Shown here one piece after another: positions 1 to 64,000 of a DNA stretch of 64,000 bases. Source of the DNA: Ignavibacteriota bacterium. GTDB lineage: Bacteria > Bacteroidota > Ignavibacteria > UBA10030 > UBA6906. Each line of letters opens with the position of its first letter. The stretch's first letter is position 1. The notes below the pieces were generated by a model. That model made no database searches. It was not told the origin of the DNA and worked only from the letters and a program-made list of their open reading frames with translations. A program made the translations under genes and the position numbers. The stretch is taken from assembly GCA_963811705.1 (NCBI GenBank), contig CAWESL010000005.1, forward strand, positions 175,278 through 239,277, in the 5' to 3' direction.

Positions 1-1130
1 CCGATGTCGACATGCAGGTCACGGAAGATCTTCAACCGCGTCCCTTCTCCTGCAGGGACATGCAACCCTGCCTGCGCCATCAGGACGATGAACCCGACGC
101 ATTTCATGGCGACACTCTTCCCGCCCGCATTCGGTCCGCTGATGACCAGCGTCGTGTACCCGTTGCCGAGTTCCAGATCCAGCGGCACTGTCCCGTGTAA
201 TCCGTGGTTGAGCAGAAGGATCGGATGCCGTGCGCGCACCAGCGTCAACGGACCCTCGGGACCGACCTGGGGCTCCATGCCCAGGATTTCGATCGAGTAG
301 CGCGCCTTCGCCTGGAGAAAATCGAGCAGGGCAAGGCGGTGCAGATTCTCCTCGAGGTTCGCCCGGCGCTCGCGCACCTGAGACGTGAGAACCTGGAGGA
401 TTCTCTCCACCTCGCGTTGTTCCTGGAACTGCAGACTCCGGATTTCGTTATTGAGCTCAAGGGTCTCGGTCGGTTCCACGAAAACGGTCGCACCGCTCGA
501 GGACGCGCTATGGATGAACCCCGGGACATTCCGTTTGTGTTCGGTCTTGACGGGGATGACCATTCTCCCCTCGCGCGTCGTAATGATCTCCTCCTGACTG
601 AAACCGAGATCCGAAACGCCCCGGAGGATCGTCTCCAACCGTTTCCGGAGCTGCTCCGACTTCTCCGCAATCGACCGTCGAATGGCCAGGAGCTCTTTTG
701 AGGCGTTCGTCTTCACCGCGGCGGAATCGTCGATCGCCTGAGCGATATTGAACTCGAGGACTTTGTCGGCTCCGAGGCCTTCGGCGATAGACCACAGGAG
801 GAGGGACAGGTCTCGTCGCTTCGCAAGCACGGCACGTGTCAGGCGCGACGCACGCACGGTCGTCAAAATCTGAAGCAGTTCTTTCGGGAGGAGGGTTGCC
901 CCGTCAATGGCCGAGCGCGCGAGTGCCGGGCCGACAGGCTGCAGTCCTTCCAGCGGCAGCCCTTCCTCCTCCTCGAGCAGGCGTTTCATCTCTGAGACCT
1001 GCTGCAACGCGAGGCGCACCTGCGACGTCTCCGTTTCCGCCCTGAGTCCGCGCACGAGCTCAGCGCCGGGTTCCGATATTGCGTGTCGGAGAATCCGCTC
1101 CCGGATGCGCTCGAATTCGAGCTTCGACAT
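1..1130 (-). CDS. mutS2: Endonuclease MutS2 (Smr-type MutS paralog), N-terminal ~376 aa; 3-prime end runs off window start
   Basis: Minus-strand translation from ATG at 1128-1130 gives MSKLEFERIRERILRHA..., typical MutS2 N-terminus; Walker A region TLVISGPNAGGKSVAMKCVGFIVLMAQAG read on minus strand around 100-160. Not in ORF track because no stop within window. Confidence 0.8.
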   Translation of the reverse strand, partial: MSKLEFERIRERILRHAISEPGAELVRGLRAETETSQVRLALQQVSEMKRLLEEEEGLPLEGLQPVGPALARSAIDGATLLPKELLQILTTVRASRLTRAVLAKRRDLSLLLWSIAEGLGADKVLEFNIAQAIDDSAAVKTNASKELLAIRRSIAEKSEQLRKRLETILRGVSDLGFSQEEIITTREGRMVIPVKTEHKRNVPGFIHSASSSGATVFVEPTETLELNNEIRSLQFQEQREVERILQVLTSQVRERRANLEENLHRLALLDFLQAKARYSIEILGMEPQVGPEGPLTLVRARHPILLLNHGLHGTVPLDLELGNGYTTLVISGPNAGGKSVAMKCVGFIVLMAQAGLHVPAGEGTRLKIFRDLHVDI

Positions 1131-3177: not shown

Positions 3178-4986
3178 ATGTTCAAATATAAGGTAGTAAT
3201 TCTCGCTCTCTTTTTCTCTTCCGTTTCGTTTGGTCAGACATCGCCGGAGATTCGCGCGTCTGACATCAAATTGTACCTGAAGTATCTCGCGTCACCGGAA
3301 CTGGAAGGAAGGGCGAGTGGATCGGAAGGAAACAGGAAGGCTGCGGCGTTCATCGCAGACTGGATGAGCCGTGACGGCATCGAGCCCAAAGGTGATAACG
3401 GGACGTATTTTCAGACCTTTGACTTTGTGGCGGCGGTTCGACTGGGAGACGGCAATGCAGTCTCCATGTCCGGAAAGACTTTCGAGGGAGGGACGGCATC
3501 GCTGAAAGTCAATGACGATTTTCGTCCCCTTGCATTCTCCTCGAACGGCTCGGTCAGCGGACCGCTCGCGTTTGCCGGTTACGGCATCACTGCCGGAGAC
3601 CAGAACTACGACGACTACGCCGGCCTCGATGTTGCGGGAAAGGTGGTCGTTGTCCTCCGTTACGGCCCCGATGGCTCCGATCCGCACAGTCCGTTTGGCA
3701 AATACACATCGTTCCGGAATAAGGCGAGGATCGCCCGTGACAAAGGCGCGGTCGCAATCATTTTCCTGAACGGCCCCCGCGACGAGCAATCCGACGATCT
3801 CGTGAGGCTGACCTACGATCAGAGCTTCGAGACTTCGGGGATCCCGGCGATTTCCATGAAGCGCGACTGGATCGAGAGACTCCTCGTCGCCCGCGGTGTC
3901 AGTCTCGGGTCGCTCCAGGATTCGATTCGCGCCACGAAGAAGCCCATGAGCCTCCCGCTCGATGCTGAAGCGACGCTGCAAACGAATGTCGTGAAGGTGA
4001 AATCGAAAACCGCGAATATCATCGGGTTTCTTCCCGGGAATGATCCCGTTCTTCAGGACCAGGTCCTGATTCTCGGGGCACATATGGATCATCTCGGCTA
4101 CGGAGGACGGGGGTCGGGCTCGCTTGTTCCGGATACGATCGCCATTCACCCGGGCGCGGACGACAACGCTTCGGGCGCGAGCGGTCTGATGGAAATCATG
4201 CAGTGGATGGGTTCGCGCAAGCAAACGCTCAAACGCAGCGTGCTGTTCCTCTTTTTCTCGGGTGAAGAATTGGGGACTCTCGGATCCGCCTACTATGTGG
4301 CACATCCTGAACTCCCGTTGGACCGGAGCATCGCCATGCTGAACATGGACATGGTGGGAAGACTGGAGGGGAAGAACCTTACGGTCTACGGTACAGGAAC
4401 TTCCTCTTCCTGGACTCCCCTGCTCGATCGCTTCAACAAGGATTCCACCTTTGCGTTGAAAACCATTCCCGACGGCTACGGCCCGAGCGATCATTCGCAG
4501 TTCTACGGGAAGGACATGCCGGTACTTTTTTTCTTTACCGGCACTCACAATGACTATCATAAACCAGGCGATACCTGGGAGAAGATCAATTATCCCGGCG
4601 AAGAAAAGGTCGTGCGGTTCGTGGCAAATATCGCAGACGCGATTGACATCATGCCGGCGCGCCCCGCGTTCACAAAAGTGCAAACGTCAACGCCTTCCAC
4701 CTCGGGGGACACGCGGTCGTTTTCCGTCACTCTTGGAATCATTCCTGACTATGCCGAAGGGTCCGATGGGATGAAAATCGGCGGGATCAGGCCTGGTGGA
4801 CCAGCGGAGAAGGCAGGGCTCCTTTCCGGCGACATCATCACGAAAATGGGCGGAAAGAAGATCATGAACATCTATGATTACATGGGAGTGCTCGGGGAAC
4901 TCAAGGCGGGAGATCAGGTCGACGTTGAAATAACCCGCGGCGGGCAGGCCATGACCTTCCATGCGACGATGCAGAAGCGTCAATGA
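3178..4986 (+). CDS. M28 family zinc peptidase with PA domain and C-terminal PDZ domain
   Basis: Signal peptide; M28 metal-binding motifs (HMDHLG, GADDNASG, FSGEELG, NMDMVG, DH…DT) and C-terminal PDZ-like GMKIGGIRPGGPAEKAGLLSGDIITKMGGKKI. Confidence 0.8.
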   Translation: MFKYKVVILALFFSSVSFGQTSPEIRASDIKLYLKYLASPELEGRASGSEGNRKAAAFIADWMSRDGIEPKGDNGTYFQTFDFVAAVRLGDGNAVSMSGKTFEGGTASLKVNDDFRPLAFSSNGSVSGPLAFAGYGITAGDQNYDDYAGLDVAGKVVVVLRYGPDGSDPHSPFGKYTSFRNKARIARDKGAVAIIFLNGPRDEQSDDLVRLTYDQSFETSGIPAISMKRDWIERLLVARGVSLGSLQDSIRATKKPMSLPLDAEATLQTNVVKVKSKTANIIGFLPGNDPVLQDQVLILGAHMDHLGYGGRGSGSLVPDTIAIHPGADDNASGASGLMEIMQWMGSRKQTLKRSVLFLFFSGEELGTLGSAYYVAHPELPLDRSIAMLNMDMVGRLEGKNLTVYGTGTSSSWTPLLDRFNKDSTFALKTIPDGYGPSDHSQFYGKDMPVLFFFTGTHNDYHKPGDTWEKINYPGEEKVVRFVANIADAIDIMPARPAFTKVQTSTPSTSGDTRSFSVTLGIIPDYAEGSDGMKIGGIRPGGPAEKAGLLSGDIITKMGGKKIMNIYDYMGVLGELKAGDQVDVEITRGGQAMTFHATMQKRQ

Positions 4987-52762: not shown

Positions 52763-55700
52763 TTAGAAAGTCACTTTCACCGTTACGACGGAATGTGATC
52801 TTGTCGGCACAACGACGGTCCTCCCCTTCACCGGCACCGGCGCTCCGTCTTTTTCCAGAAAGTCTGAGCGTTCAACACTTCTGGGTGGCTTCGGCAATTG
52901 CAGTACCGCTGAGCAGTCCACTCCCGTGGCGTCATACCACTGGACTATCCACGCGTTCGAATTCTCGGCCTTTTTCAGGCTGCTGAGCACCAGGTTCGAC
53001 GGCTCCAGGGTCAGAAACGAATGGCGATCAGGCAAGGGTCCCTTGTGGGAATTTGTGACGATTGCAATCAACGGATTATTGAACTCGTAGCCGCGCTGCA
53101 CCGTCCGGGCATCACGCCAGTCCCCCGCATGAGGATAGAGGGCGTACTGAATGGAATGCTTCCCCCGGTCGGCTGTCGGGTCCGGAGACTTTGGGGAACG
53201 TAGCAAAGAAAGCCGCATCGTGTTGCCTTTGATGTCGTATCCATACTTGGCATTGTTGAGGAGGCTCACGCCATAGCCCCCGGAAGAAACATCGGCCCAC
53301 TTTTCCGCCGGCACTTCAACTTTCGCTTTCTCCCAACTTGTCCGCATTTGCGTCGATCGCTGAATCCATCCGAAGGGAATTTCATACGAAGCCACGGTGT
53401 CCGTGACAGTCAGTGGAAATGCCACCTTGAGCATCGTGTGGTCTTCCCACCAGTCGACATCGGTCGTAAAGTCGATCCGATCCAGACCGTTATAGAGAAT
53501 GATCTCTTGCGTGAAGAACGAAGATGGGAAATCCTCGGTCGGAAAATCCTTCACAGTACCGGGTTTCAAATAGTCACGGTGAAGGCGGAGGATACACCGC
53601 ACGGGTCCGGTTTCCACGATTTCCGCCCCTCTGTACTTCGAGGGAAACTCGACGCCGGTCAACCCGATATTCCAGGCGTCGTAGTGTTTTGGCAGGTCTT
53701 CGAGAAGCTGAAGCCGATTGCCGGGGCCCTCAAGGAGCTCTTTCCCGTTTCGTTTGTCCTCGATGCTCTTCACCCATCCGCTCGTGGAGTCCACCATTAC
53801 CTTGAACAGACCGTTGTCGAGAGAAATCGGTGATGTTGCCAGCGCTTCTTTGAACTCCGACGGCGTCTGCTTTCGAAGCTCGTAAACGGCATATCCCATT
53901 GACGGAACCTTCGAGGCGATAAAGAGGATCTCCCTGCGGTATTTTCCGACGTCTACGCTTTGCGAAGGAATTTCGTTCCCTCGCGCGTCAAAGATCGCGT
54001 AGTCGCTTGTGTCCCCTTCCGGAAGAGCGACGCGTGCGACGTCGGTTCTCTCCCATCCAAGAGTGTTGACGATCACCACCGGCGTCCCCTTCCGGAATGC
54101 CGACGTATTTACCTGACGGACAATCTGCTGGAGCGAGCCATCCAACTGGAACTGTCCGATATGACGGGCCTCGTTGTCCGTCGCCGTTGCGTCGATATAG
54201 ACCTCCCTGATTCCCGAACCAGGAAGAATGTCGTGGAATTGATTGAACAACACCTTCCTCCACGCAGCCTCGAGATCAGCGCCATGGTAAGGCCTTCCGA
54301 AGAGCGTCGCAAGCGTGGAGAATTCTTCTGCATCGGTAAGAAGAAATTCATTGGAGCGATTGAACTTCTTCATGTTCGCCTGGGTCGTGAACGTCCCCTG
54401 GTGATACTCCAGATAGAGCTCATCCTTCCATACAGGCACTGTCGAGAGGTCCTGTTGCTTCAACCAATCGAGATACTGGGTTGCAGTCCCGAACTCGATC
54501 GTTGGGAAAATATCCAATGTTCTCAGGTGGTCGATGCGTGCAAGCATTTCAAGGGACGGCCCCCCGCCGTGGTCGCCGACGCCGAATAAGATGAGCATCT
54601 TCCGAAACCCGGTGTTGGCCTCGAACTCGCGCAGCCAATCATTCAACTGATACGGATTATCGATCGTGTTGACATAGTCAAACGGGAAGTAACTCAGGAT
54701 TCGAGATCCGTCCGCAGATTCCCACCAGAAGACCCGATACGGGAAGACATCTGTTTCATTCCATCCGATTTTCTGCGTAATGAAGGCATCGATCCCCGCG
54801 TTGCGGTACAGCATCGGCATATTGCCATTGTACCCGAACGAGTCGGGGTTCCAGCCGATCTTCACATCCACATCGAAATTTCTCTTAAAGTATTCCTTCG
54901 CGTACAGAAGATGCCTTGCCCAGGAAACCCCGCTTGGCAGGTTGCAGTCCGGTTCGACCCACATTCCGCCCACGATTTCCCAGCGCCCGGTTTTCACCGC
55001 CTGCTGCATCTGGCGGAAGAGGTCCGGATACAGGCGCTGCATCCAGTCATAGTACGCCGCCGCGCTCTGGGTGTAGGTAAAATCCGGCCGTGCCTTCATC
55101 ATGTTCATCACGGAAGAGAACGTGTTCCGGCAGACCTGAATCGTTTCCTTCGACCGCCACAGCCACGCCGCGTCAATGTGCGCGTTCGCGTCGAAGAAGA
55201 GGGTGAACCGCCTTGCGAATTCCTTGATGGGGAGCAGGTCGGCGCGCACTGCGGCGATGGATGCCTGGAATTGTTCGAGGTCACCCTTCCGGAGCGCTTT
55301 GATGTCGACGCGTTGGGCGAGGGACTGGAGCAATTGGTTCAGCCGGAACTTCTCGCCCTTATCGATGGTGGACCTGTCGATCCCCGGGTCCACTTTCGCG
55401 TTGGCATTTGTCTGATACGTATCGAAGCTCAGAAGCTTTTGACCGATCCGCAGGCTCAGGGCGAAATCGCTCACGAGGTCTCTGATCGATTTGCTTGTTC
55501 CGGTCTCCAACTCTGCGCGGAGAAGCCGGAGCGGACCGCCGGTATTGATCGCTTTGATCGCGATCAGGAAGCGTTCTCCGGGCTTTGCGTCCTTCGTCAA
55601 TTCGAATTCGCCGTCCCACGGGAAACGTCCCTTGCTCTCGCCGTTCACCCAGAGATAGCCGTAGTCGTCGACGGAGACAAGAAACCGGACCGTGCCGCGG

Positions 55701-56053
55701 ACGGGTTGTCCGAGGATGCGGTCCGGCAGCACGATCTCCTTGCGAAGCCAGCAAGAGTCGGGATAAATGCTCTCGCCGATTCCGAGGGTTTCCCACTGCG
55801 CATCGTCGAAGGCTTTGGATGTGGGATCGCCGACGATATGGGCGGCCTTCAGATCGCGACTCACTTTCCAGTTGTCGAACGAAACGACGGTGAGGGAGTC
55901 GAGCGCTCGGCTCAAGCGATCGACATTCGATTGAGCGATGAGCCGACCCGGAACAATGAACGTAACGCCAAGAAGCAGGAGTGCGGTTTGGGCGCATCGC
56001 CCAACGGAATCGATCAACTGGTGAGATGCGGAAGTCTTTTCCACCGGGACCAT
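52763..56053 (-). CDS. Glycoside hydrolase family 38 alpha-mannosidase
   Basis: GH38 N-terminal motif NAHIDAAWLW and typical domain order; 1096 aa. Confidence 0.85.
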   Translation of the reverse strand: MVPVEKTSASHQLIDSVGRCAQTALLLLGVTFIVPGRLIAQSNVDRLSRALDSLTVVSFDNWKVSRDLKAAHIVGDPTSKAFDDAQWETLGIGESIYPDSCWLRKEIVLPDRILGQPVRGTVRFLVSVDDYGYLWVNGESKGRFPWDGEFELTKDAKPGERFLIAIKAINTGGPLRLLRAELETGTSKSIRDLVSDFALSLRIGQKLLSFDTYQTNANAKVDPGIDRSTIDKGEKFRLNQLLQSLAQRVDIKALRKGDLEQFQASIAAVRADLLPIKEFARRFTLFFDANAHIDAAWLWRSKETIQVCRNTFSSVMNMMKARPDFTYTQSAAAYYDWMQRLYPDLFRQMQQAVKTGRWEIVGGMWVEPDCNLPSGVSWARHLLYAKEYFKRNFDVDVKIGWNPDSFGYNGNMPMLYRNAGIDAFITQKIGWNETDVFPYRVFWWESADGSRILSYFPFDYVNTIDNPYQLNDWLREFEANTGFRKMLILFGVGDHGGGPSLEMLARIDHLRTLDIFPTIEFGTATQYLDWLKQQDLSTVPVWKDELYLEYHQGTFTTQANMKKFNRSNEFLLTDAEEFSTLATLFGRPYHGADLEAAWRKVLFNQFHDILPGSGIREVYIDATATDNEARHIGQFQLDGSLQQIVRQVNTSAFRKGTPVVIVNTLGWERTDVARVALPEGDTSDYAIFDARGNEIPSQSVDVGKYRREILFIASKVPSMGYAVYELRKQTPSEFKEALATSPISLDNGLFKVMVDSTSGWVKSIEDKRNGKELLEGPGNRLQLLEDLPKHYDAWNIGLTGVEFPSKYRGAEIVETGPVRCILRLHRDYLKPGTVKDFPTEDFPSSFFTQEIILYNGLDRIDFTTDVDWWEDHTMLKVAFPLTVTDTVASYEIPFGWIQRSTQMRTSWEKAKVEVPAEKWADVSSGGYGVSLLNNAKYGYDIKGNTMRLSLLRSPKSPDPTADRGKHSIQYALYPHAGDWRDARTVQRGYEFNNPLIAIVTNSHKGPLPDRHSFLTLEPSNLVLSSLKKAENSNAWIVQWYDATGVDCSAVLQLPKPPRSVERSDFLEKDGAPVPVKGRTVVVPTRSHSVVTVKVTF

Positions 56054-56696: not shown

Positions 56697-57738
56697 TTAC
56701 TCCCCCTTGCTCATCTTCGGCCACGAATATCCATACATTGCGATGAGCGCAATACAAAAGAGTGGCACGAGGAAGCTGAACGACATATTGTAAAGATCCC
56801 CAAGGTATCCCATAAGCTCCGGCATGATCGCTCCGCCAATGATCGCCATGACGATGAAACCTGAAGCCCTCTTCGCCTTCACTCCAAGCCCGTGGATGTC
56901 AAGGGCAAAGATCGTCGGAAACATAATCGACATGAAGAAGAAGCTGAGAAACATCGCGCGCTGCCACTGCACCGACGAAATGCGGGTGTGACCAGATGGA
57001 ACGGCTGACGTTGGAGTCGGTTGAGTCGCTCAGGTGATACTCATCCTCTGTATTCAGGTCGGGGACCTTGGCGAAGTAGAAGACCACCGCCATTACAAGG
57101 ACGATCACTGCTACGGCAAGGTAAGGGATGTACAAATGACCCTGGGCGACTTCTGCGTCACCGGCGGAATAAAAGAAGACTCCCCCGATGATGGGACCAA
57201 AAATCCATCCGACACCGTTGAACGATTGAGCAAGATTAATGCGCGCTGCGGCAAACGACTTCGGACCAAGAACCGTTGTATAGGGATTGGCCACCGTCTC
57301 AAGAATTGTCAACCCCATGGCTATGACACACACTCCCAGCAGGAACGCCCAGAATGATGAGATGGATGTTGCAGGAACAAACCAGAATCCGCCCAGCGCG
57401 ACGATCAAGAGCCCGGATATGATGCCTCCTTTGTAACCGAGTTTGCGTGCCAGCCAGCTTGCGGGCATGGCCATCAGAAGATAGCCCAAATAGTGCGCGA
57501 ACTGCACCCAGGCCGACTGTGCCTTTGTCAAATGCAGTTGATCCTGAAAGTGCTTGTCCATCACATCGATCATCCCATTGCAGATTCCCCACAACAAGAA
57601 CAACGTGCTGACGAGTGCAAACGTGAATACGTAGCTCCTGCCATCCTCACTCTTGAACATCTTGGAGAGATCCATGACGACTTCCTTTAGCAACAGCTTG
57701 ACGAGTCGAGCAAGTGACGGCATGCTCATCATCAACAT
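56697..57738 (-). pseudogene. fucP: Degraded L-fucose:H+ symporter (FucP-family MFS transporter)
   Basis: ORF 56899..57738 matches FucP N-terminal half up to …SHPHFVGAVAA then goes out of frame; ORF 56697..56972 matches only the last two TM helices (…FIVMAIIGGAIMPELMG…); ~70 aa of mid-protein missing. Confidence 0.65.
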
Positions 57739-57869
57739 CTATGTCGACGCCCACATCGAATGACAGGGCTAAAGCATGCGTCGAAATGTATCCTTCACAA
57801 AGTTCGAATTCAAGTGAGGGGCAAGACAGATCGCGCAACCCGACTTCCGGCCTTCGAAAAAGCAGCATC

Positions 57870-58268
57870 GGCGGAGGAATTATATCGAATGGCGGGACTA
57901 ATGGACGATGGTGGGGAGTGGCCTGGTGTAAATTTGGGACGAAATGTCGGTTGTCTCACAATCTTAGAGTCCCCATTCTTCATTCCTCCGGCCTCATCTC
58001 CCCTGCGCGCGGCGGCGAAAGCGATAGAGATTTCGTGCACAAACTTGGAATTGTGCTGAAGGAACTGAATGAATCTGCAATCTGGCTGACCTTCATCCAG
58101 GAAGGGAGGTACCTGATGGACTCAGAGCTCGGAAGGATTCAGGAAGAATGCACGACGATGTGCCGAATCATCGCTGCGAGTATCAACACGGTGCGGAAAA
58201 GATGTGAGAATGAGATGGGAAGGAGATTATCGAAAATTGAGAATCGAAAATCGAGGATCGGAAACTGA
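57870..58268 (+). CDS. Four-helix-bundle protein (TIGR02436-like), probably diverged or truncated
   Basis: C-terminal half GGESDRDFVHKLGIVLKELNESAIWL resembles the conserved SxKDFIHKLSIALKEANET motif; N-terminal region of ORF 57714.. is low-complexity. Confidence 0.4.
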   Translation, partial: GGGIISNGGTNGRWWGVAWCKFGTKCRLSHNLRVPILHSSGLISPARGGESDRDFVHKLGIVLKELNESAIWLTFIQEGRYLMDSELGRIQEECTTMCRIIAASINTVRKRCENEMGRRLSKIENRKSRIGN

Positions 58269-58316
58269 TCAGCAATCCTCGATTCTCAATCATCGATCTT
58301 CGATTTTCGATTTTCG
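58229..58316. repeat. Long imperfect palindrome built from CGAAAAT/ATTTTCG heptamer units, centred on CTGATCAG
   Basis: Left arm ATTGAGAATCGAAAATCGAGGAT, right arm ATCCTCGATTCTCAAT…CGATTTTCGATTTTCG; centre 58265-58272. Confidence 0.5.
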
Positions 58317-58334
58317 TGCACCCACCAGGACTCC

Positions 58335-58383
58335 CGTCTCGCCTTCGGCGAGACGAGGCTCGTCCCGAACTTCGTTCGGGACG
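58335..58383. repeat. Two tandem GC-rich hairpins (9-10 bp perfect stems, TTC loops)
   Basis: CGTCTCGCC-ttc-GGCGAGACG (58335-58355) and CGTCCCGAAC-ttc-GTTCGGGACG (58361-58383); no U-tract on either strand. Confidence 0.5.
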
Positions 58384-58397
58384 GCGAACCTGGAAAC

Positions 58398-58445
58398 TGT
58401 GCACCCAGTAGGACTCGAACCTACAACCCACTGATTAAGAGTCCC
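58398..58445 (-). other. tRNA 3-prime fragment (T-arm plus acceptor 3-prime strand); candidate att repeat at island boundary
   Basis: Minus strand reads …GTAGG-TTCGAGT-CCTAC-TGGGTGC-A (canonical T-stem/loop, acceptor, discriminator), but no matching 5-prime acceptor strand (GCACCCA), D-arm or foldable anticodon arm upstream. Confidence 0.5.
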
Positions 58446-59029
58446 AGCTTGGTTAGAGCCGACTTGTGCGAACACCCCTTTTGACAGGATTCCTTGAAGT
58501 CTCTTCACTGGGTCTGATAGTTCCAAACCCAATTGGTCCACAGTCCTGTCTACAGCTTCCCTGCTCGCGCCGATGAAATTGTGTGGGTGATGTTCTTGAC
58601 TCTACTTCAATTTACGAAACGCCAGTTGCCATAGCAAGCCATACATTCTCGCCGTTGTCCCGCATCACATCTTCGAGCCAGTGCCCCCCCACTTTGTCTC
58701 ACAAAGATGCCCCACAACTGCCGACATCATGAACTCCTCGAGGAACAAGACGGCTTCGCAAGAATGACCGCGCATTCTTCACTGCGAGGTTGAATAGACG
58801 GCGCTTTCTTATGGAATGTCCTCATAATGTGACGAATCGAGAACTTGGTTAAACCAGTCGAATCGATATTCTCGCCCTTGGTTTCCTCGTCGCAAAGCCT
58901 ACGGCCCCCTGTCCGTGCAGCCGACAAACAATCTTCTTACTTCATTCGAGTTGCATCAAGGGAGCAATTCACTAGATCGGCTTCAACACTCGCGTATGGG
59001 ACGTTATCTTTGTATATAGCGACTCAGAG

Positions 59030-61696
59030 TCATTCCTTAACTCGCCTTCCGACATCATATTTGGCGTATTTGTTCCGGTAAGTTACCAGTCCACCCTCTA
59101 GGTAGTTAATGACTTCGATGCCAACAGGATCGTGGTCCATTGAACCTTCAAGAGTTACTCTACCTCTGTCTGCATCAGCCTCAAGAACGACGAAACTATC
59201 ACTGTCAGAGGCTACCGCCAAGCTCGAATTATGAGTGGTGAAGATAAACTGACGCCTTTCCTTGCCCTTGCGCAATTTCATACAGACGTCTGTCCAAATG
59301 GATCTGATGTCAAGAGAATCTTCTGGCTGGTCGATCACAATGGGCATGCTTCCATCACTTAGAGCCATGATGAGCATTGCTGTGCATTTCTGACCGACAG
59401 ATAACCTGGCCAAAGGTGCGTGGGAGCCATCCGATAGACAATACTGTATCTGAGGCCTGTCCTGTGGCACCGCCTTGTACTGCAGTTCCAGCAAGTCCTC
59501 TATTTCGACAACATCAAGAAGGTAGTTGGCCAATGTCACGACGGCACCCAATTCCAGGGACACTTTGCTTGCCAGATCTTTCAATCTTTCAGGCTGCCTT
59601 CGGGCTGCGTAGGTGATAATCTTGCCAATGAACTCCCTTGGAGTTACGGATTGACAGATTCTCTCGATATCGGTATCTCGTAGGTACGATCCCCTCTTCA
59701 GCTCACCTAGTCTTTGCTTGAACACGTCCACATTTGAAGCTTCCAGCAGCGTAATCTTTAGCTTCCCAGAAGATTCTTCCTCAAACATCCGGCATTTAGC
59801 TCTTCGATCGGCGCTGAAGGCGCCGTATATCTTGGCCAGCCGATCTAGTCGCTCGTTCCTCTCATCGCTGATTTGTTTCGCTTTGTCCACAAGCTCCTTC
59901 GCCTTGTCCAAGCGACTCTGCGTATCTGCTAGTTCCTTCACAAGCTTTGATCGCTTCGCGGCAACAGCCTGATAGGTGCCTCCCATTTGCCTTACAGTCG
60001 CTTCATAGTCTGCCTTGGCGGCTTTGTATGTAGAGAGCAGCGCGTGTTCCTCTGAGGAAAGACTACCGAGTATTTCATGCAGTCTGTCGCCCAACTCCCT
60101 GAGTTTGAGTTCCACCGCCGCTCTGGTTTCTGAAATCAGTTTTGCAGCCCTCCTCAGGCTTGGGTCATCCGCCACCGAAGCCGGGAAGGCTGGAGTGGGA
60201 ACATCTAGAAAGTACTTCACAGCGGGACCTACTCTTGACGACAACCCCTTGACATAGGCGAGCGACGATTGAAGAGCTTGCTGTTTACCCTCTGCCTTGG
60301 CAAATTTCTCAAACACCGGATTCTTCAGTGACTCGTCGATGCCGATTACTTCAGCGTTGATTGTGTCTATTCGCTTCTTGAGCCCCTCGGTCTCGATGAA
60401 GGCTCGTAGGGCGGCCGCGAGCTGTTTGTCAAGACCCTTCAATTCCCTCTCGAACTGGTCAATGGCTTCAGTATGGGCTTTGAAGTCAAAGAACCTGTCA
60501 ATGAAAGCGAGCTGTTCGTTTTCGTCTTCGGCAATTCTAATGATTTCATTCTGACTGAGAAAGAGTACGGGGAACACTCGCGTAACATCTACAGAAGCAT
60601 CCTCTTGCGGGTTGTTTTCTTCCGGATCATAATGGCGTTTGACTGCTATTCGTCTTCCTGTTTCCAGTACCAAGGTTACCTCGACTGTTCCATATGTCTT
60701 CAGGCACTGTTCTAACTTGCTTCGATGATCGTCCGCTACACCCTCATTGGCTGAGCACTGATCAAGGACAAACCTGAGTAGTTCCACAAGGAGCGACTTG
60801 CCTGATCCCTTTGCACCGATTACACTTGTTAGACCCTCGTGAAATGTGATCGTGCAGCCATCGAGAAAACCACCGAGGATAGAAATGGTTTCTATCCTCG
60901 GAAACACAATCGGCTCGGCAAGTTCGATTCTAATTCGGACGTCTGGATCATCAAAACAGTTCCTCAGACTTTGGAGATCAACTCGCTCCATCTTGAAGTA
61001 CGTTACTCTTATGCCGATGCCCTCGACACTATGGCCACTCTTACCTGCCAGGGCCGGATTGTCCGAAGATTGAATCACAGCAAGTTTCCGCTTATACTCT
61101 GGATCTGTCCCGTCCAGGAAGTCAATTGCCCTTCGTCTGTTGCTCCTCTTCTCCGGATCTAGATTGTCGGTTGCCTCCACAGCATGCAATGATGAATGCT
61201 GAATGACCAGCGTCCTTGAGCGACCCTTCATTTCTGTAAACAACCCGTGACTCGAATTCACGTGAGCCGGTATAGCCAGAGCATCACAATCAGCAATTTG
61301 TGCAATGACTTCAGAAGGAGACCTCTGAACGACAGTGGTTTCCCTGCCATGATCTTCCGGAGATAGACCCAACTTACTTAGAAGGTCTCTGACATGTTCT
61401 CCTCGTTTGGATGGATCAAAAACTGCCAGTATGTGGACCCCGGATCCTGCTTGGGTTGTGATCTCTACACCAGGGAAGACCGCAAGTGGTTTTCCCTCCG
61501 CGGCTGCCTTGATCTTATCAACCCACTCGCCACTGTTATGGTCCGTGATCGCTATGCCTGCAAGGCCTTTACTGATGGCTTGGGCCACGATATCGGCAGC
61601 AATCGCCTCAGCTTTAGCATCAGTGGGATGAATAAAATCTGAAGAAGCGGGAGTGTGAACATGCAGGTCGAGAGAAACATACTTTAATCCTGGCAT
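59030..61696 (-). CDS. PHP-domain phosphoesterase fused to Rad50/SbcC/RecF-like ABC ATPase with long coiled-coil
   Basis: N-terminus LDLHVHTPASSDF…ITDHN…GVEIT…AIPAHV (PHP His/Asp motifs); Walker A GAKGSGKS (~aa 310); ~400 aa coiled-coil-like; C-terminal signature LSVGQK, Walker B IVIDQPEDSLD, H-loop FTTHN. Confidence 0.75.
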   Translation of the reverse strand: MPGLKYVSLDLHVHTPASSDFIHPTDAKAEAIAADIVAQAISKGLAGIAITDHNSGEWVDKIKAAAEGKPLAVFPGVEITTQAGSGVHILAVFDPSKRGEHVRDLLSKLGLSPEDHGRETTVVQRSPSEVIAQIADCDALAIPAHVNSSHGLFTEMKGRSRTLVIQHSSLHAVEATDNLDPEKRSNRRRAIDFLDGTDPEYKRKLAVIQSSDNPALAGKSGHSVEGIGIRVTYFKMERVDLQSLRNCFDDPDVRIRIELAEPIVFPRIETISILGGFLDGCTITFHEGLTSVIGAKGSGKSLLVELLRFVLDQCSANEGVADDHRSKLEQCLKTYGTVEVTLVLETGRRIAVKRHYDPEENNPQEDASVDVTRVFPVLFLSQNEIIRIAEDENEQLAFIDRFFDFKAHTEAIDQFERELKGLDKQLAAALRAFIETEGLKKRIDTINAEVIGIDESLKNPVFEKFAKAEGKQQALQSSLAYVKGLSSRVGPAVKYFLDVPTPAFPASVADDPSLRRAAKLISETRAAVELKLRELGDRLHEILGSLSSEEHALLSTYKAAKADYEATVRQMGGTYQAVAAKRSKLVKELADTQSRLDKAKELVDKAKQISDERNERLDRLAKIYGAFSADRRAKCRMFEEESSGKLKITLLEASNVDVFKQRLGELKRGSYLRDTDIERICQSVTPREFIGKIITYAARRQPERLKDLASKVSLELGAVVTLANYLLDVVEIEDLLELQYKAVPQDRPQIQYCLSDGSHAPLARLSVGQKCTAMLIMALSDGSMPIVIDQPEDSLDIRSIWTDVCMKLRKGKERRQFIFTTHNSSLAVASDSDSFVVLEADADRGRVTLEGSMDHDPVGIEVINYLEGGLVTYRNKYAKYDVGRRVKE

Positions 61697-62047
61697 TATC
61701 GACCCCTCCAGATGCGAATAGGCTTTTCGTGGTACCTCTTTTCCCCCTTGATTGCATGCTGCTGAAAATCTGCGAGCCAGTTTTGGTGATTTCAGGTAGA
61801 ACAGGGCAAACGATATTCCTTCCGGAGGAGTGTGCAGCCCCTCTAGGAGACCTGTAGCCAGATCCTCGAGTTCTCACACCGGTTCGCGAGATCCTTCTCA
61901 GAGCACTATTCTAAGAGTCCTTCGAACGAGACGGGCAGGGACCAATGGATTCCGCAAAGCCTCCAATGGTATCGCTTCCCCTATCCTCGGATGTGCCAAC
62001 TGATTCGCCGGTCCTTTGGCAGGCCAAATAGTGGCAAAGGCCGGCAG

Positions 62048-62560
62048 TCACGACTCCTCCTTGATTGTGCCGTTTTCCTCGACCCTCAGGGTAATCCACT
62101 CGAACCGTTCCCTCTCAACCGCTCTTTCAATAGATCGTTGGAGATCCCTGTGTTGCCCTGAAGATGATTCTCGGTCGAGCAACACGATACGTTTGACCTG
62201 ATCGGCATTCTTCATTCCATCGAAAACGACAAAATCAATAGGATGAAAGAGAACCTTTGCGTCATCTGGATTCAGTCTGCGAGGAGTGAATACAGGATCG
62301 ATCTTCTTGACAACTCTCCCCGCGGCAATGCGCCCTCTTTGCCGGGCTAGCTCCTGTAATTCCTGTTTACGCTCTTCAAGCTTATCTGCCAACGATTCAA
62401 GCCGGTCCGCCTCCGCATCAAGGGTATCCATCCAATCCGTTCTTGGCTTTGTCCTCAAGAAGACTCTGCAATCGCTTAAGCGGATAAACTCCCGGCACCT
62501 AGGACAAATGCCGAAAATCTGTCTCTGGACGTTGAAGAACTTCAATATCTCTTCTTTCAT
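62048..62560 (-). CDS. Small protein: N-terminal CPxC zinc-ribbon-like motif, coiled coil, C-terminal PD-(D/E)xK-like domain
   Basis: 171 aa from MKEEILKF; GICPRCREFIRLSDC; coiled-coil DAEADRLESLADKLEERKQELQELARQR; C-terminal FHPIDFVVFDG…KRIVLLDRE; ATG overlaps upstream stop (ATGA). Confidence 0.55.
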   Translation of the reverse strand: MKEEILKFFNVQRQIFGICPRCREFIRLSDCRVFLRTKPRTDWMDTLDAEADRLESLADKLEERKQELQELARQRGRIAAGRVVKKIDPVFTPRRLNPDDAKVLFHPIDFVVFDGMKNADQVKRIVLLDRESSSGQHRDLQRSIERAVERERFEWITLRVEENGTIKEES

Positions 62561-63065
62561 TTCTTCACCTCCTGCTTGTACACATCCCAAAGGAGGCGTT
62601 TCTTCGCTATAACCGATCGTATTTCCTTTTGGTGGTTGTTCAAGCGTGCATTGCCTGTCTTGATGTCCGTAAATAGAATGCGCTCAACCTTCCCTTTGGC
62701 GCTAAGACCCTCGAAAATGATATAGTCAATCGGGTCGAATAACGAACGGCAGTCATTGGAGTTGAAGCGGAACGATTTCATGGCTGGAGCTAGCCGCTCA
62801 GTATGAATCCAATGTTGATTGATTTGGCTCCCACCTCAGACCGCTTGCTGATGTTCCTTCTCTCTTCCCGCAGTTCCTTTACCTGCTCGCGGAGTTGGGC
62901 AACGCGCTCTTCATAGAGTTTCTCTGCTTCTGGAGTGAAGCTGTCAAGATGAAACAGATGAGCATCCCGAAGACGAATCGTTTCCTGGCAACTTGGACAT
63001 ACCACATAGAATCGCTCATGGGTGAGCGTATGGATGATCTGCTTGGCAATTCCCGAAAGATCCAT
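62557..63065 (-). pseudogene. Tandem paralog of 62048-62560, split into 91-aa N-terminal and 74-aa C-terminal ORFs by a ~26-nt insertion/frameshift
   Basis: 62790..63065 (VVCPSCQETIRLRDAHLF…coiled coil…AKSINIGF) aligns to the N-half and 62557..62781 (FDPIDYIIFEG…ILFTDIKTG) to the C-half of the intact paralog; different frames, 8 nt apart. Confidence 0.5.
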
Positions 63066-63276
63066 CTATCGTGACTCCGAGGTCTCGTTAACTGCCCCCG
63101 CAACAAGGCTACACCAAGTGCATCATCTATGATCGGGAGGAAGAGAATCTGAATTTGGTACCAACAGTGGCCTTTGATCTGCCGGCACTCGTTTGTACTT
63201 CTTACCTTCGATAACACATGACAATGTGATTAGAACATAGTTCGCACCGATCCAGGATGCATCAACCATGTTGTCC

Positions 63277-63746
63277 TCATCGACGTGCGACGCTTAGTCG
63301 CATAGCTTCATTGAGCAGCGCTTCCATGTTGTTGCGAATTTCCGCCAGATCATCGTTTTGCCTGTTTGCTAGATTTACAACGATCTGCGCCGATCGCGGG
63401 GTCAGAAGTCGTTGCGTAAGTATCCCGAGGCCATATAGGGGACTCCATGATGACACCATTGCGGCCTTTACTTCACCTCCGAAGGAATTCGGTTTGAGTC
63501 CAAAAATGCGCAATGGAATTTGATCGGTATTCGATAAGGAAAGGCACCAGCCTCCCCGATTCTGTCTCCGGAAACATCATATTCACCGACCAACTCAGCA
63601 AGGGCCGCGATCGCCTTTTCTACGGTCAACGCGAGTGAATCTCCGCTCAGCCAACTGCTGACCCTCCTCGTATTACTCCCCCACAGTCCAAATCTGACGC
63701 ATGTTAGGAAATCAATCTCATTACTCTTTACCACCTTTAGCCGCAT
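63277..63746 (-). CDS. Two overlapping hypothetical ORFs (92 aa and 78 aa), possibly one frameshifted gene
   Basis: ORF 63468..63746 and 63277..63513 overlap by 46 nt in different frames; no family recognised. Confidence 0.25.
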
Positions 63747-64000
63747 CTTGAATCCACTCTTTCGATGTGTTCGGATGCCTACCGTAATCCAATGACGGCA
63801 ATCTCACCTGCAGTCATCCCAAGTATTCATCAGACAATGTGTCGGTCTGACACCCTAGAGGTAGAGCATCCGCAAGATGTCCACCAGTCTTGGTAGACAC
63901 GACGGTACCCACAAGGTCGGGCAAACGAAAGAGGACCTCCTCCCCCGTTAGATACTCTCAAGCCTATCCCGGGGATTTACGGGCTGCAAACTGGATCTAG

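Follow-up and report, generated by a model that had tools for sequence, protein, structure and literature searches.

An orphan tRNA-Lys(CTT) 3' half as a probable integration scar beside presumed defence-island DNA in an uncultured Ignavibacteria-like genome

Islands and prophages that occupy tRNA genes at the anticodon-loop subsite ('A') have been described (Williams 2002, as cited in PMC4383910), and the regenerated tDNA together with the displaced fragment marks the ends of such an island (PMC4383910). In the Islander collection, a 3' tDNA fragment was present in 3760 of 3919 islands, 2083 islands had an anticodon-centred site, and 125 tandem arrays were recorded (Hudson, Lau and Williams 2015; PMC4383910). 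The criteria of that collection recognise the anticodon loop 'A' or the T-stem region/junction 'J' as subsites, and ask for a cognate full-length tRNA gene on the same replicon, in the same orientation and 2–200 kb 5' of the 3' fragment, with a tyrosine integrase inside (PMC4383910).

The locus described here lies in a 64-kb window, the whole stretch of DNA that was analysed, and resembles the Islander islands in several respects. Its terminal 3' tDNA fragment begins at the anticodon loop, shares its strand with the native downstream flank and adjoins compositionally foreign DNA with accessory (defence) cargo, and in relatives this tRNA hosts tandem arrays. Unlike the typical Islander case, the predicted regenerated tRNA and integrase of this island fall outside the window, and the module is rearranged relative to the neighbouring core genes. 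The fragment extends through the discriminator and is a terminal rather than an internal piece of a tRNA, its boundary, 2 nt to the 5' side of the anticodon loop, coincides with a recognised crossover subsite, and it overlaps no conserved protein-coding domain; short unsupported ORFs are the only frames across it, and no protein family match was obtained in 58290–59029. Quite probably, an integrative element recombined with tRNA-Lys(CTT) at the anticodon-loop subsite and left the displaced 3' half as an attR-type distal repeat. The features of the locus are collected in Table 1.

Table 1. Coordinates of the orphan tRNA half and of the features on either side of it (positions in the window; parts of minus-strand features are listed 5' to 3')
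Feature	Position	Strand	Basis or remark
Four-helix-bundle gene remnant (23S rRNA IVS protein family, PF05635/TIGR02436)	57999..58268	+	Convergent with the tRNA
AT-rich long inverted repeat	58229..58316	.	Native flank 3' of tRNA-Lys in relatives
tRNA-linked 83-nt unit	58317..58399	-	Repeat finder, relatives; first base C58399 shared with the orphan fragment
Unit: TTCCAGGTTCG		-	Copy of variable-loop/T-stem 5' strand
Unit: GC hairpins	58362-58382 and 58335-58355	-	Followed by GAGTCCTGGTGGGTGCA
Orphan tRNA-Lys(CTT) 3' half, putative attR-type core	58399..58443	-	Homology to L013-L016 stops at 58443
Fragment: GA		-	Last 2 nt of anticodon-stem 5' strand
Fragment: anticodon loop CTCTTAA	58441-58435	-
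Fragment: TCAGT		-	3' strand of anticodon stem
Fragment: variable loop GGGTT		-
Fragment: T-stem 5' strand GTAGG	58424-58420	-	T-arm GTAGG-TTCGAGT-CCTAC
Fragment: T-loop TTCGAGT	58419-58413	-
Fragment: T-stem 3' strand CCTAC	58412-58408	-
Fragment: acceptor 3' strand TGGGTGC	58407-58401	-
Fragment: discriminator A	58400	-	Then C58399
Sequence in place of the tRNA 5' half, GCACAAGTCGGCTCTAACCAAGCTGG	58444..58469	-	Unrelated to tRNA by alignment
Non-coding stretch between fragment and TrlF gene	58470..59029	.	Without homologue in any fetched locus
PHP-domain and SMC-like TrlF-family AAA ATPase, 888 aa, Ppl-related	59030..61696	-	Presumed island cargo
Endonuclease related to archaeal Holliday-junction resolvases	62048..62590	-	Presumed island cargo
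Endonuclease paralogue, frameshifted	~62600-63065	-	N- and C-terminal parts in different frames

By alignment, the 44–45 nt of 58399–58443 are identified as the 3' half of a tRNA-Lys(CTT) gene. A sequence-only reading of this DNA had proposed an orphan tRNA 3' end consisting of T-arm and acceptor on the minus strand; the T stem-loop, the 7-nt acceptor strand and the discriminator A are present as it described them (58424–58400), but the fragment is longer than that: the variable loop, the 3' side of the anticodon stem and the anticodon loop, which that reading had not recognised, are also preserved. The 44-mer GACTCTTAATCAGTGGGTTGTAGGTTCGAGTCCTACTGGGTGCA (58443–58400, minus strand) corresponds to positions 30–73 of the 73-nt tRNA-Lys(CTT) of relatives. 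Identity to the orthologues is 40/44, the only differences being in two T-stem pairs, where the relatives have CC/GG and the window GT/AC, with pairing kept in both. Four random substitutions would give two intact compensated T-stem pairs with P ~2e-5, and the same two pairs covary in the homologues listed (CC/GG in 112, GC/GC in 9, GG/CC in 5 and GA/TC in 1), so the GT/AC allele arose in a functional tRNA and not by decay of the orphan.

The 22-mer GGTTCGAGTCCTACTGGGTGCA occurs once in the window, where no copy is expected by chance even at ≤3 mismatches. No further copy of the 44-mer or of the adjoining 83-nt unit was found in the window beyond an 18-nt copy at 58316–58333. The exact GT/AC variant of the fragment had no match in the JGI metagenomes, and no intact tRNA with the GT/AC T-stem allele was found in the JGI metagenomes or among the GTDB representatives, which do not include the source species. 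In a scan of the GTDB representatives with a 25-mer, all matches fell in unrelated genes, for tRNA-Arg and tRNA-Ile, of Lactobacillaceae and CPR bacteria.

Relatives of the locus (designated by L numbers) were found through the neighbouring GH38 alpha-mannosidase gene (52763–56053, minus strand), whose counterparts in L013 and L014 are 82% and 81% identical and lie on contigs of 1.23 Mb and 0.83 Mb. A further database protein matches it with 100% identity and comes from a contig of 241,193 nt. Both relatives carry an intact 73-nt tRNA-Lys(CTT), GCACCCATGGCTCAATTGGTAGAGCAACTGACTCTTAATCAGTGGGTTCCAGGTTCGAGTCCTGGTGGGTGCA, about 5 kb from GH38, at the position homologous to the fragment and with the same downstream flank. 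In blastn comparisons with L013, L014 and the two provirus ends, L015 and L016, the matching part of the window ended each time at 58443. No tRNA-Lys 5' half was found anywhere in the window on either strand at ≤3 mismatches, the promoter region of the relatives' tRNA is absent from the window, and 58444–58469 is read as element-derived DNA at the junction.

On the downstream side, toward lower coordinates, the 83-nt unit, the AT-rich inverted repeat and the convergent four-helix-bundle gene follow one another, collinear with the 3' flank of the tRNA in the relatives, and similarity to L014 reaches 57844. The flank of hairpin and four-helix-bundle gene is common to L022, L028 and L070, and the hairpin is shared by L025 and L030. 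Only the C-terminal half of the four-helix-bundle gene is left in the window, with about 100 nt missing in comparison with L014 4286–4678, and the remnant is probably a pseudogene. Farther along, fucP (L-fucose permease; 56697–57738, minus strand) is represented by two ORFs that cover profile positions 1–244 and 329–409; this points to an internal deletion of about 85 residues and a frameshift, and the gene is probably a pseudogene, directly beside the island boundary.

The same site is used elsewhere. A search pattern made from the 3' half, which did not constrain the two variable T-stem pairs, matched twice in the IMG/VR provirus Ga0172379_10001092 (58,239 nt; L015, L016 and L093). At the left end of the provirus, an intact tRNA-Lys(CTT) is immediately followed by a convergent gene encoding a tyrosine integrase of 347 aa (PF00589) and by a repressor-like gene. 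The right end has an orphan half beginning ...aatGACTCTTAATCAG, and the direct repeat measures 46 bp. The provirus thus resembles the window in its use of tRNA-Lys(CTT) and in its orphan boundary, which agrees within 1 nt: the provirus orphan starts TGACTCTTAA and the window's GACTCTTAA, so that the former begins 1 nt further 5' in tRNA numbering. It differs in that it shows no sequence similarity to the window's island side and in its T-stem allele, which is CC/GG in the provirus repeat and GT/AC in the window.

In the JGI metagenomes, the pattern matched at least 120 stretches, and among the matches listed, with the window and L013/L014 included, 124 sites were evaluable. Orphan halves made up 23 of these 124 (22 and the window). 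On the 5' side of the anticodon loop, identity to the tRNA extended over 0 bases in three orphans, 1 in four, 2 in ten (the window among them), 3 in three, 4 in two and 8 in one; the boundary therefore falls within 0–4 nt in 22 of the 23 listed, or 21 of 22 without the window, and the mode of 2 is the window's value. The metagenome contig L025 presents a complete tandem array of tRNA-Lys, an integrase island, an orphan half, a second integrase island with a DUF4062 gene, another orphan half and the AT-rich hairpin flank, and in L080, L107, L075 and L111 integrase homologues lie directly 3' of an intact tRNA. Integrase-bearing elements in related bacteria use exactly the fragment's site, and tRNA-Lys(CTT) is identified as a busy integration hot spot in the clade, visited by a provirus as well as by small integrase islands.

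The upstream side is of a different character. The DNA from 58444 to 64000 has no match in L013, L014, the provirus or the 124 related loci compared, and its G+C content is 0.499 against 0.565 for 1–56053, below that of every 5.5-kb core window (0.547–0.596). The sequence-only reading had placed the orphan half exactly at a G+C transition; the drop is real, but it is gradual, extending over about 56.5–58.7 kb, rather than a step located precisely at the fragment. The non-coding stretch beyond the fragment is presumed to be the P-arm side of the island end, and nothing convincing in the way of arm-type repeats, a promoter or a terminator was found in 57700–59100 (the promoter scan was of sigma-70 type and may not suit the phylum). 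The TrlF gene scores 365.5 bits with NF045780 (cut-off 350) and 3.9e-47 with the PADLOC Ppl model. Its nearest homologue, 71% identical, sits in a defence island of other organisms together with DUF1156, DUF499 and SNF2 genes, and remoter homologues of 45–49% identity are scattered over many phyla, so that the family has a patchy phyletic distribution. The split of the neighbouring endonuclease paralogue is either a frameshift or a sequencing indel.

Several other explanations of the fragment were weighed. According to one of them, 58400–58469 is a complete but degenerate or unconventional tRNA (a pseudogene or tRNA-like RNA), or else a tmRNA. The Rfam tRNA model RF00005 does align with 58400–58469 end to end, GCAC at 58469–58466 can pair with GUGC of the acceptor end, and a 4-bp D-like stem can be drawn; however, this permissive alignment scores only 17.3 bits, where 29 is the gathering score, contains two non-standard acceptor pairs, and shortens the anticodon stem by two deleted positions, three of the five anticodon-stem pairs being missing. 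With the same model, the intact orthologue L014 scored 74.2 bits and L016, an undisputed orphan half with an unrelated 5' flank, 23.5 bits. Since the true orphan outscores the window site, a weak full-length alignment of this kind is to be expected from a 3' half alone, and the possible pairing of GCAC gives no evidence for a 5' half; the earlier claim that no 5' half lies upstream accordingly stands, and the accompanying claim of no acceptor pairing is corrected by these four pairable bases. ARAGORN predicted neither a tRNA nor a tmRNA over the whole 64-kb window, nothing in the window reached an Rfam gathering score, and no tmRNA family was detected in 57800–59300 even at E ≤10. Neither a complete cloverleaf from a predictor nor an Rfam gathering score, by which a functional tRNA gene would be recognised, was thus obtained, nor were the paired tRNA-like ends with a tag reading frame that a tmRNA would show. 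The rejection of a tmRNA by the sequence-only reading is upheld, and the complete predicted tRNA that it had named as speaking against an orphan did not appear. The fall in identity to the orthologues from 40/44 to random occurs exactly at 58443, as at a breakpoint and not as in gradual decay. A complete tRNA or tmRNA was rejected on the results of ARAGORN and Rfam with the orphan and intact-gene controls, and this explanation as a whole is scarcely credible.

A break of another kind, in which an inversion or some other rearrangement with one breakpoint in the anticodon loop split the tRNA-Lys gene, with no insertion and no regenerated tRNA and with the TrlF region as no more than a new neighbour, is improbable but has some observations in its favour. 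The module of tRNA half, hairpin and four-helix-bundle gene is inverted relative to YidB-GH38 in comparison with L013 and L014, so at least one further rearrangement occurred at the locus, and the truncated four-helix-bundle gene and the internal deletion of fucP testify to other decay in the flank. Integrase-mediated recombination between inverted att-like sites could have been responsible. Between L013 and L014 themselves, however, the surroundings of the tRNA differ on either side, which makes orientation against GH38 weak evidence; a single inversion, moreover, predicts a plus-strand 5' half between the four-helix-bundle remnant and fucP, and the search of the window with ≤3 mismatches returned none. 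The low G+C content and the unique defence cargo fit an acquired island and count against a mere inversion. Less likely still is a chimeric metagenome join at the repeated tRNA half, attL and attR being identical repeats: the source is a metagenome-assembled contig and several nearby genes look frameshifted, but the same orphan architecture recurs at 22 other sites among the matches listed, and a misjoin there would in most cases still have produced an intact tRNA or a proper attR. Integration, in turn, has to account for the fact that neither the partner tRNA-Lys nor an integrase was seen in the window, which takes in only 5.5 kb of the presumed island. A tblastn search of the window with the integrase of the provirus found no homologue, and PF00589 was absent among the island ORFs scanned. 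The visible cargo contains no phage or conjugation genes, and the GT/AC allele is carried by no intact tRNA in the metagenomes and representatives searched. In every complete example, the integrase stands at the tRNA-proximal end, so its absence from the visible 5.5 kb is expected, and it would be situated beyond 64000.

The proposal of an attachment-site repeat, already made in the sequence-only reading, is supported by the intact tRNA in relatives, the breakpoint at 58443, the provirus, the other orphans and L025. It can be refined, with comparative support, to tRNA-Lys(CTT) as the parent gene, the anticodon loop as the subsite, the higher-coordinate side as that of the presumed island, and 58443/58444 as the boundary. 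Sequence comparison shows the identity of the fragment, its exact boundary, its native downstream flank and the foreign and unique character of the upstream DNA; this particular junction was presumably made by integration, with a regenerated tRNA-Lys and an integrase presumably located beyond the window end.

The following course of events is proposed. A tyrosine-integrase element would have recombined with tRNA-Lys(CTT) in the anticodon loop, and the element's own copy of the 3' half would have restored a working tRNA at the proximal end (attL), beside the integrase. The old 3' half would then have stayed on the native flank as a non-functional direct repeat at the distal end (attR, 58399–58443), with the 83-nt unit, the AT-rich hairpin and the four-helix-bundle remnant on the native side at lower coordinates and the low-G+C, defence-gene DNA from 58444 to past 64000 representing the element. 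Were the element still mobile, the fragment would serve as the attR core for excision; otherwise, it would be a fossil boundary marker. The fragment alone is inert because it has neither a promoter nor a 5' half.

The fragment is a real but ordinary scar of integrative elements, a kind of feature that is already known. It gives a base-precise boundary between core and acquired DNA (58443/58444) in an uncultured Bacteroidota/Ignavibacteria-like genome and marks the region of the TrlF/Ppl-like ATPase as defence cargo acquired horizontally. It is helpful for annotation and island calling and changes no concept.

Next to the fragment, a second tRNA 3'-end copy of 18 nt, GAGTCCTGGTGGGTGCAC, was detected by the repeat finder at 58316–58333, 83 nt downstream, which the sequence-only reading had missed. 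This copy closes the 83-nt unit, in which a split T-arm copy encloses two GC hairpins in the would-be T-loop and which ends in a tRNA acceptor strand; the unit folds at -53 kcal/mol (z = -5.9). It is absent from L014, single in the window and present twice in L013 (4848–5013), and longer versions occur in L030, L133, L128/L096, L047, L129 and L135. The CC/GG T-stem allele is kept by the unit even beside tRNAs with GT/AC (window) or GG/CC (L030), and the units of the window and L013 are distinguished by one compensatory pair per hairpin. Hairpins of the unit type are concentrated beside tRNA-Lys 3' ends: of those in the 797 kb examined, 26 lie no more than 250 nt from a tRNA-Lys 3'-end motif and 22 lie elsewhere.

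Cis-mobilizable or decayed elements flanked by att sites and devoid of recombination genes (CIMEs) are familiar from the literature on Streptococcus thermophilus ICEs. The 83-nt unit is like them in being a tiny stretch bounded by tRNA 3'-end copies, with a copy number of 0, 1 or 2 among relatives, and unlike them in being far smaller, highly structured with its two hairpins and placed inside a split T-arm copy, its mobility being putative. The unit is most simply read as a scar left by elements of the T-loop/junction subsite, or as a miniature derived from them; membership of an undescribed family of tRNA-Lys-linked miniature elements or structured RNAs is unlikely. Units of this kind could be very small non-autonomous integrative elements that integrases targeting the T-loop or the T-stem/acceptor junction mobilise in trans, or they could be processed 3'-trailer RNAs.

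Some minor observations concern the native flank and its surroundings. The AT-rich inverted repeat 58229–58316, which is of the ATCGAAAATCGAGGATTG type, separates the tRNA flank from the four-helix-bundle gene. In L014, motifs similar to this repeat occur on both sides of that gene, at 4679–4757 and ~4244–4285, which suggests a cassette-like unit around genes of the 23S rRNA IVS protein family. A degenerate remnant of a tRNA-Lys 3' half with a matching 5' boundary was found in L014 at 241–278 (minus strand), 4.5 kb beyond the intact tRNA, and the small region that it delimits contains the four-helix-bundle gene together with genes for a DDE transposase and an FRG-domain protein; the flank called 'native' may therefore be an old island in its own right. 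A candidate for a decayed older orphan in the window at ~57955–57975 (GACTCTAAGATTGTG) was dropped, as it was not significant in blastn-short. The Rfam model for the Plastid-ycf2 5'UTR (RF04354) matches the antisense of the fragment (58399–58469, plus strand) with 25.3 bits and the intact L014 tRNA with 51.9 bits; the model evidently contains an antisense tRNA-like segment, and the match is a cross-match and not a real feature. The Plastid-ycf2 and miRNA matches, all far under their gathering scores, were set aside as by-products of tRNA-like or hairpin sequence. Downstream of its unit, L133 carries repeated tRNA-Leu 5' fragments on the minus strand (GCCGAAGTGGCGGAATTG), and an intact tRNA-Leu occupies the corresponding position in L128.
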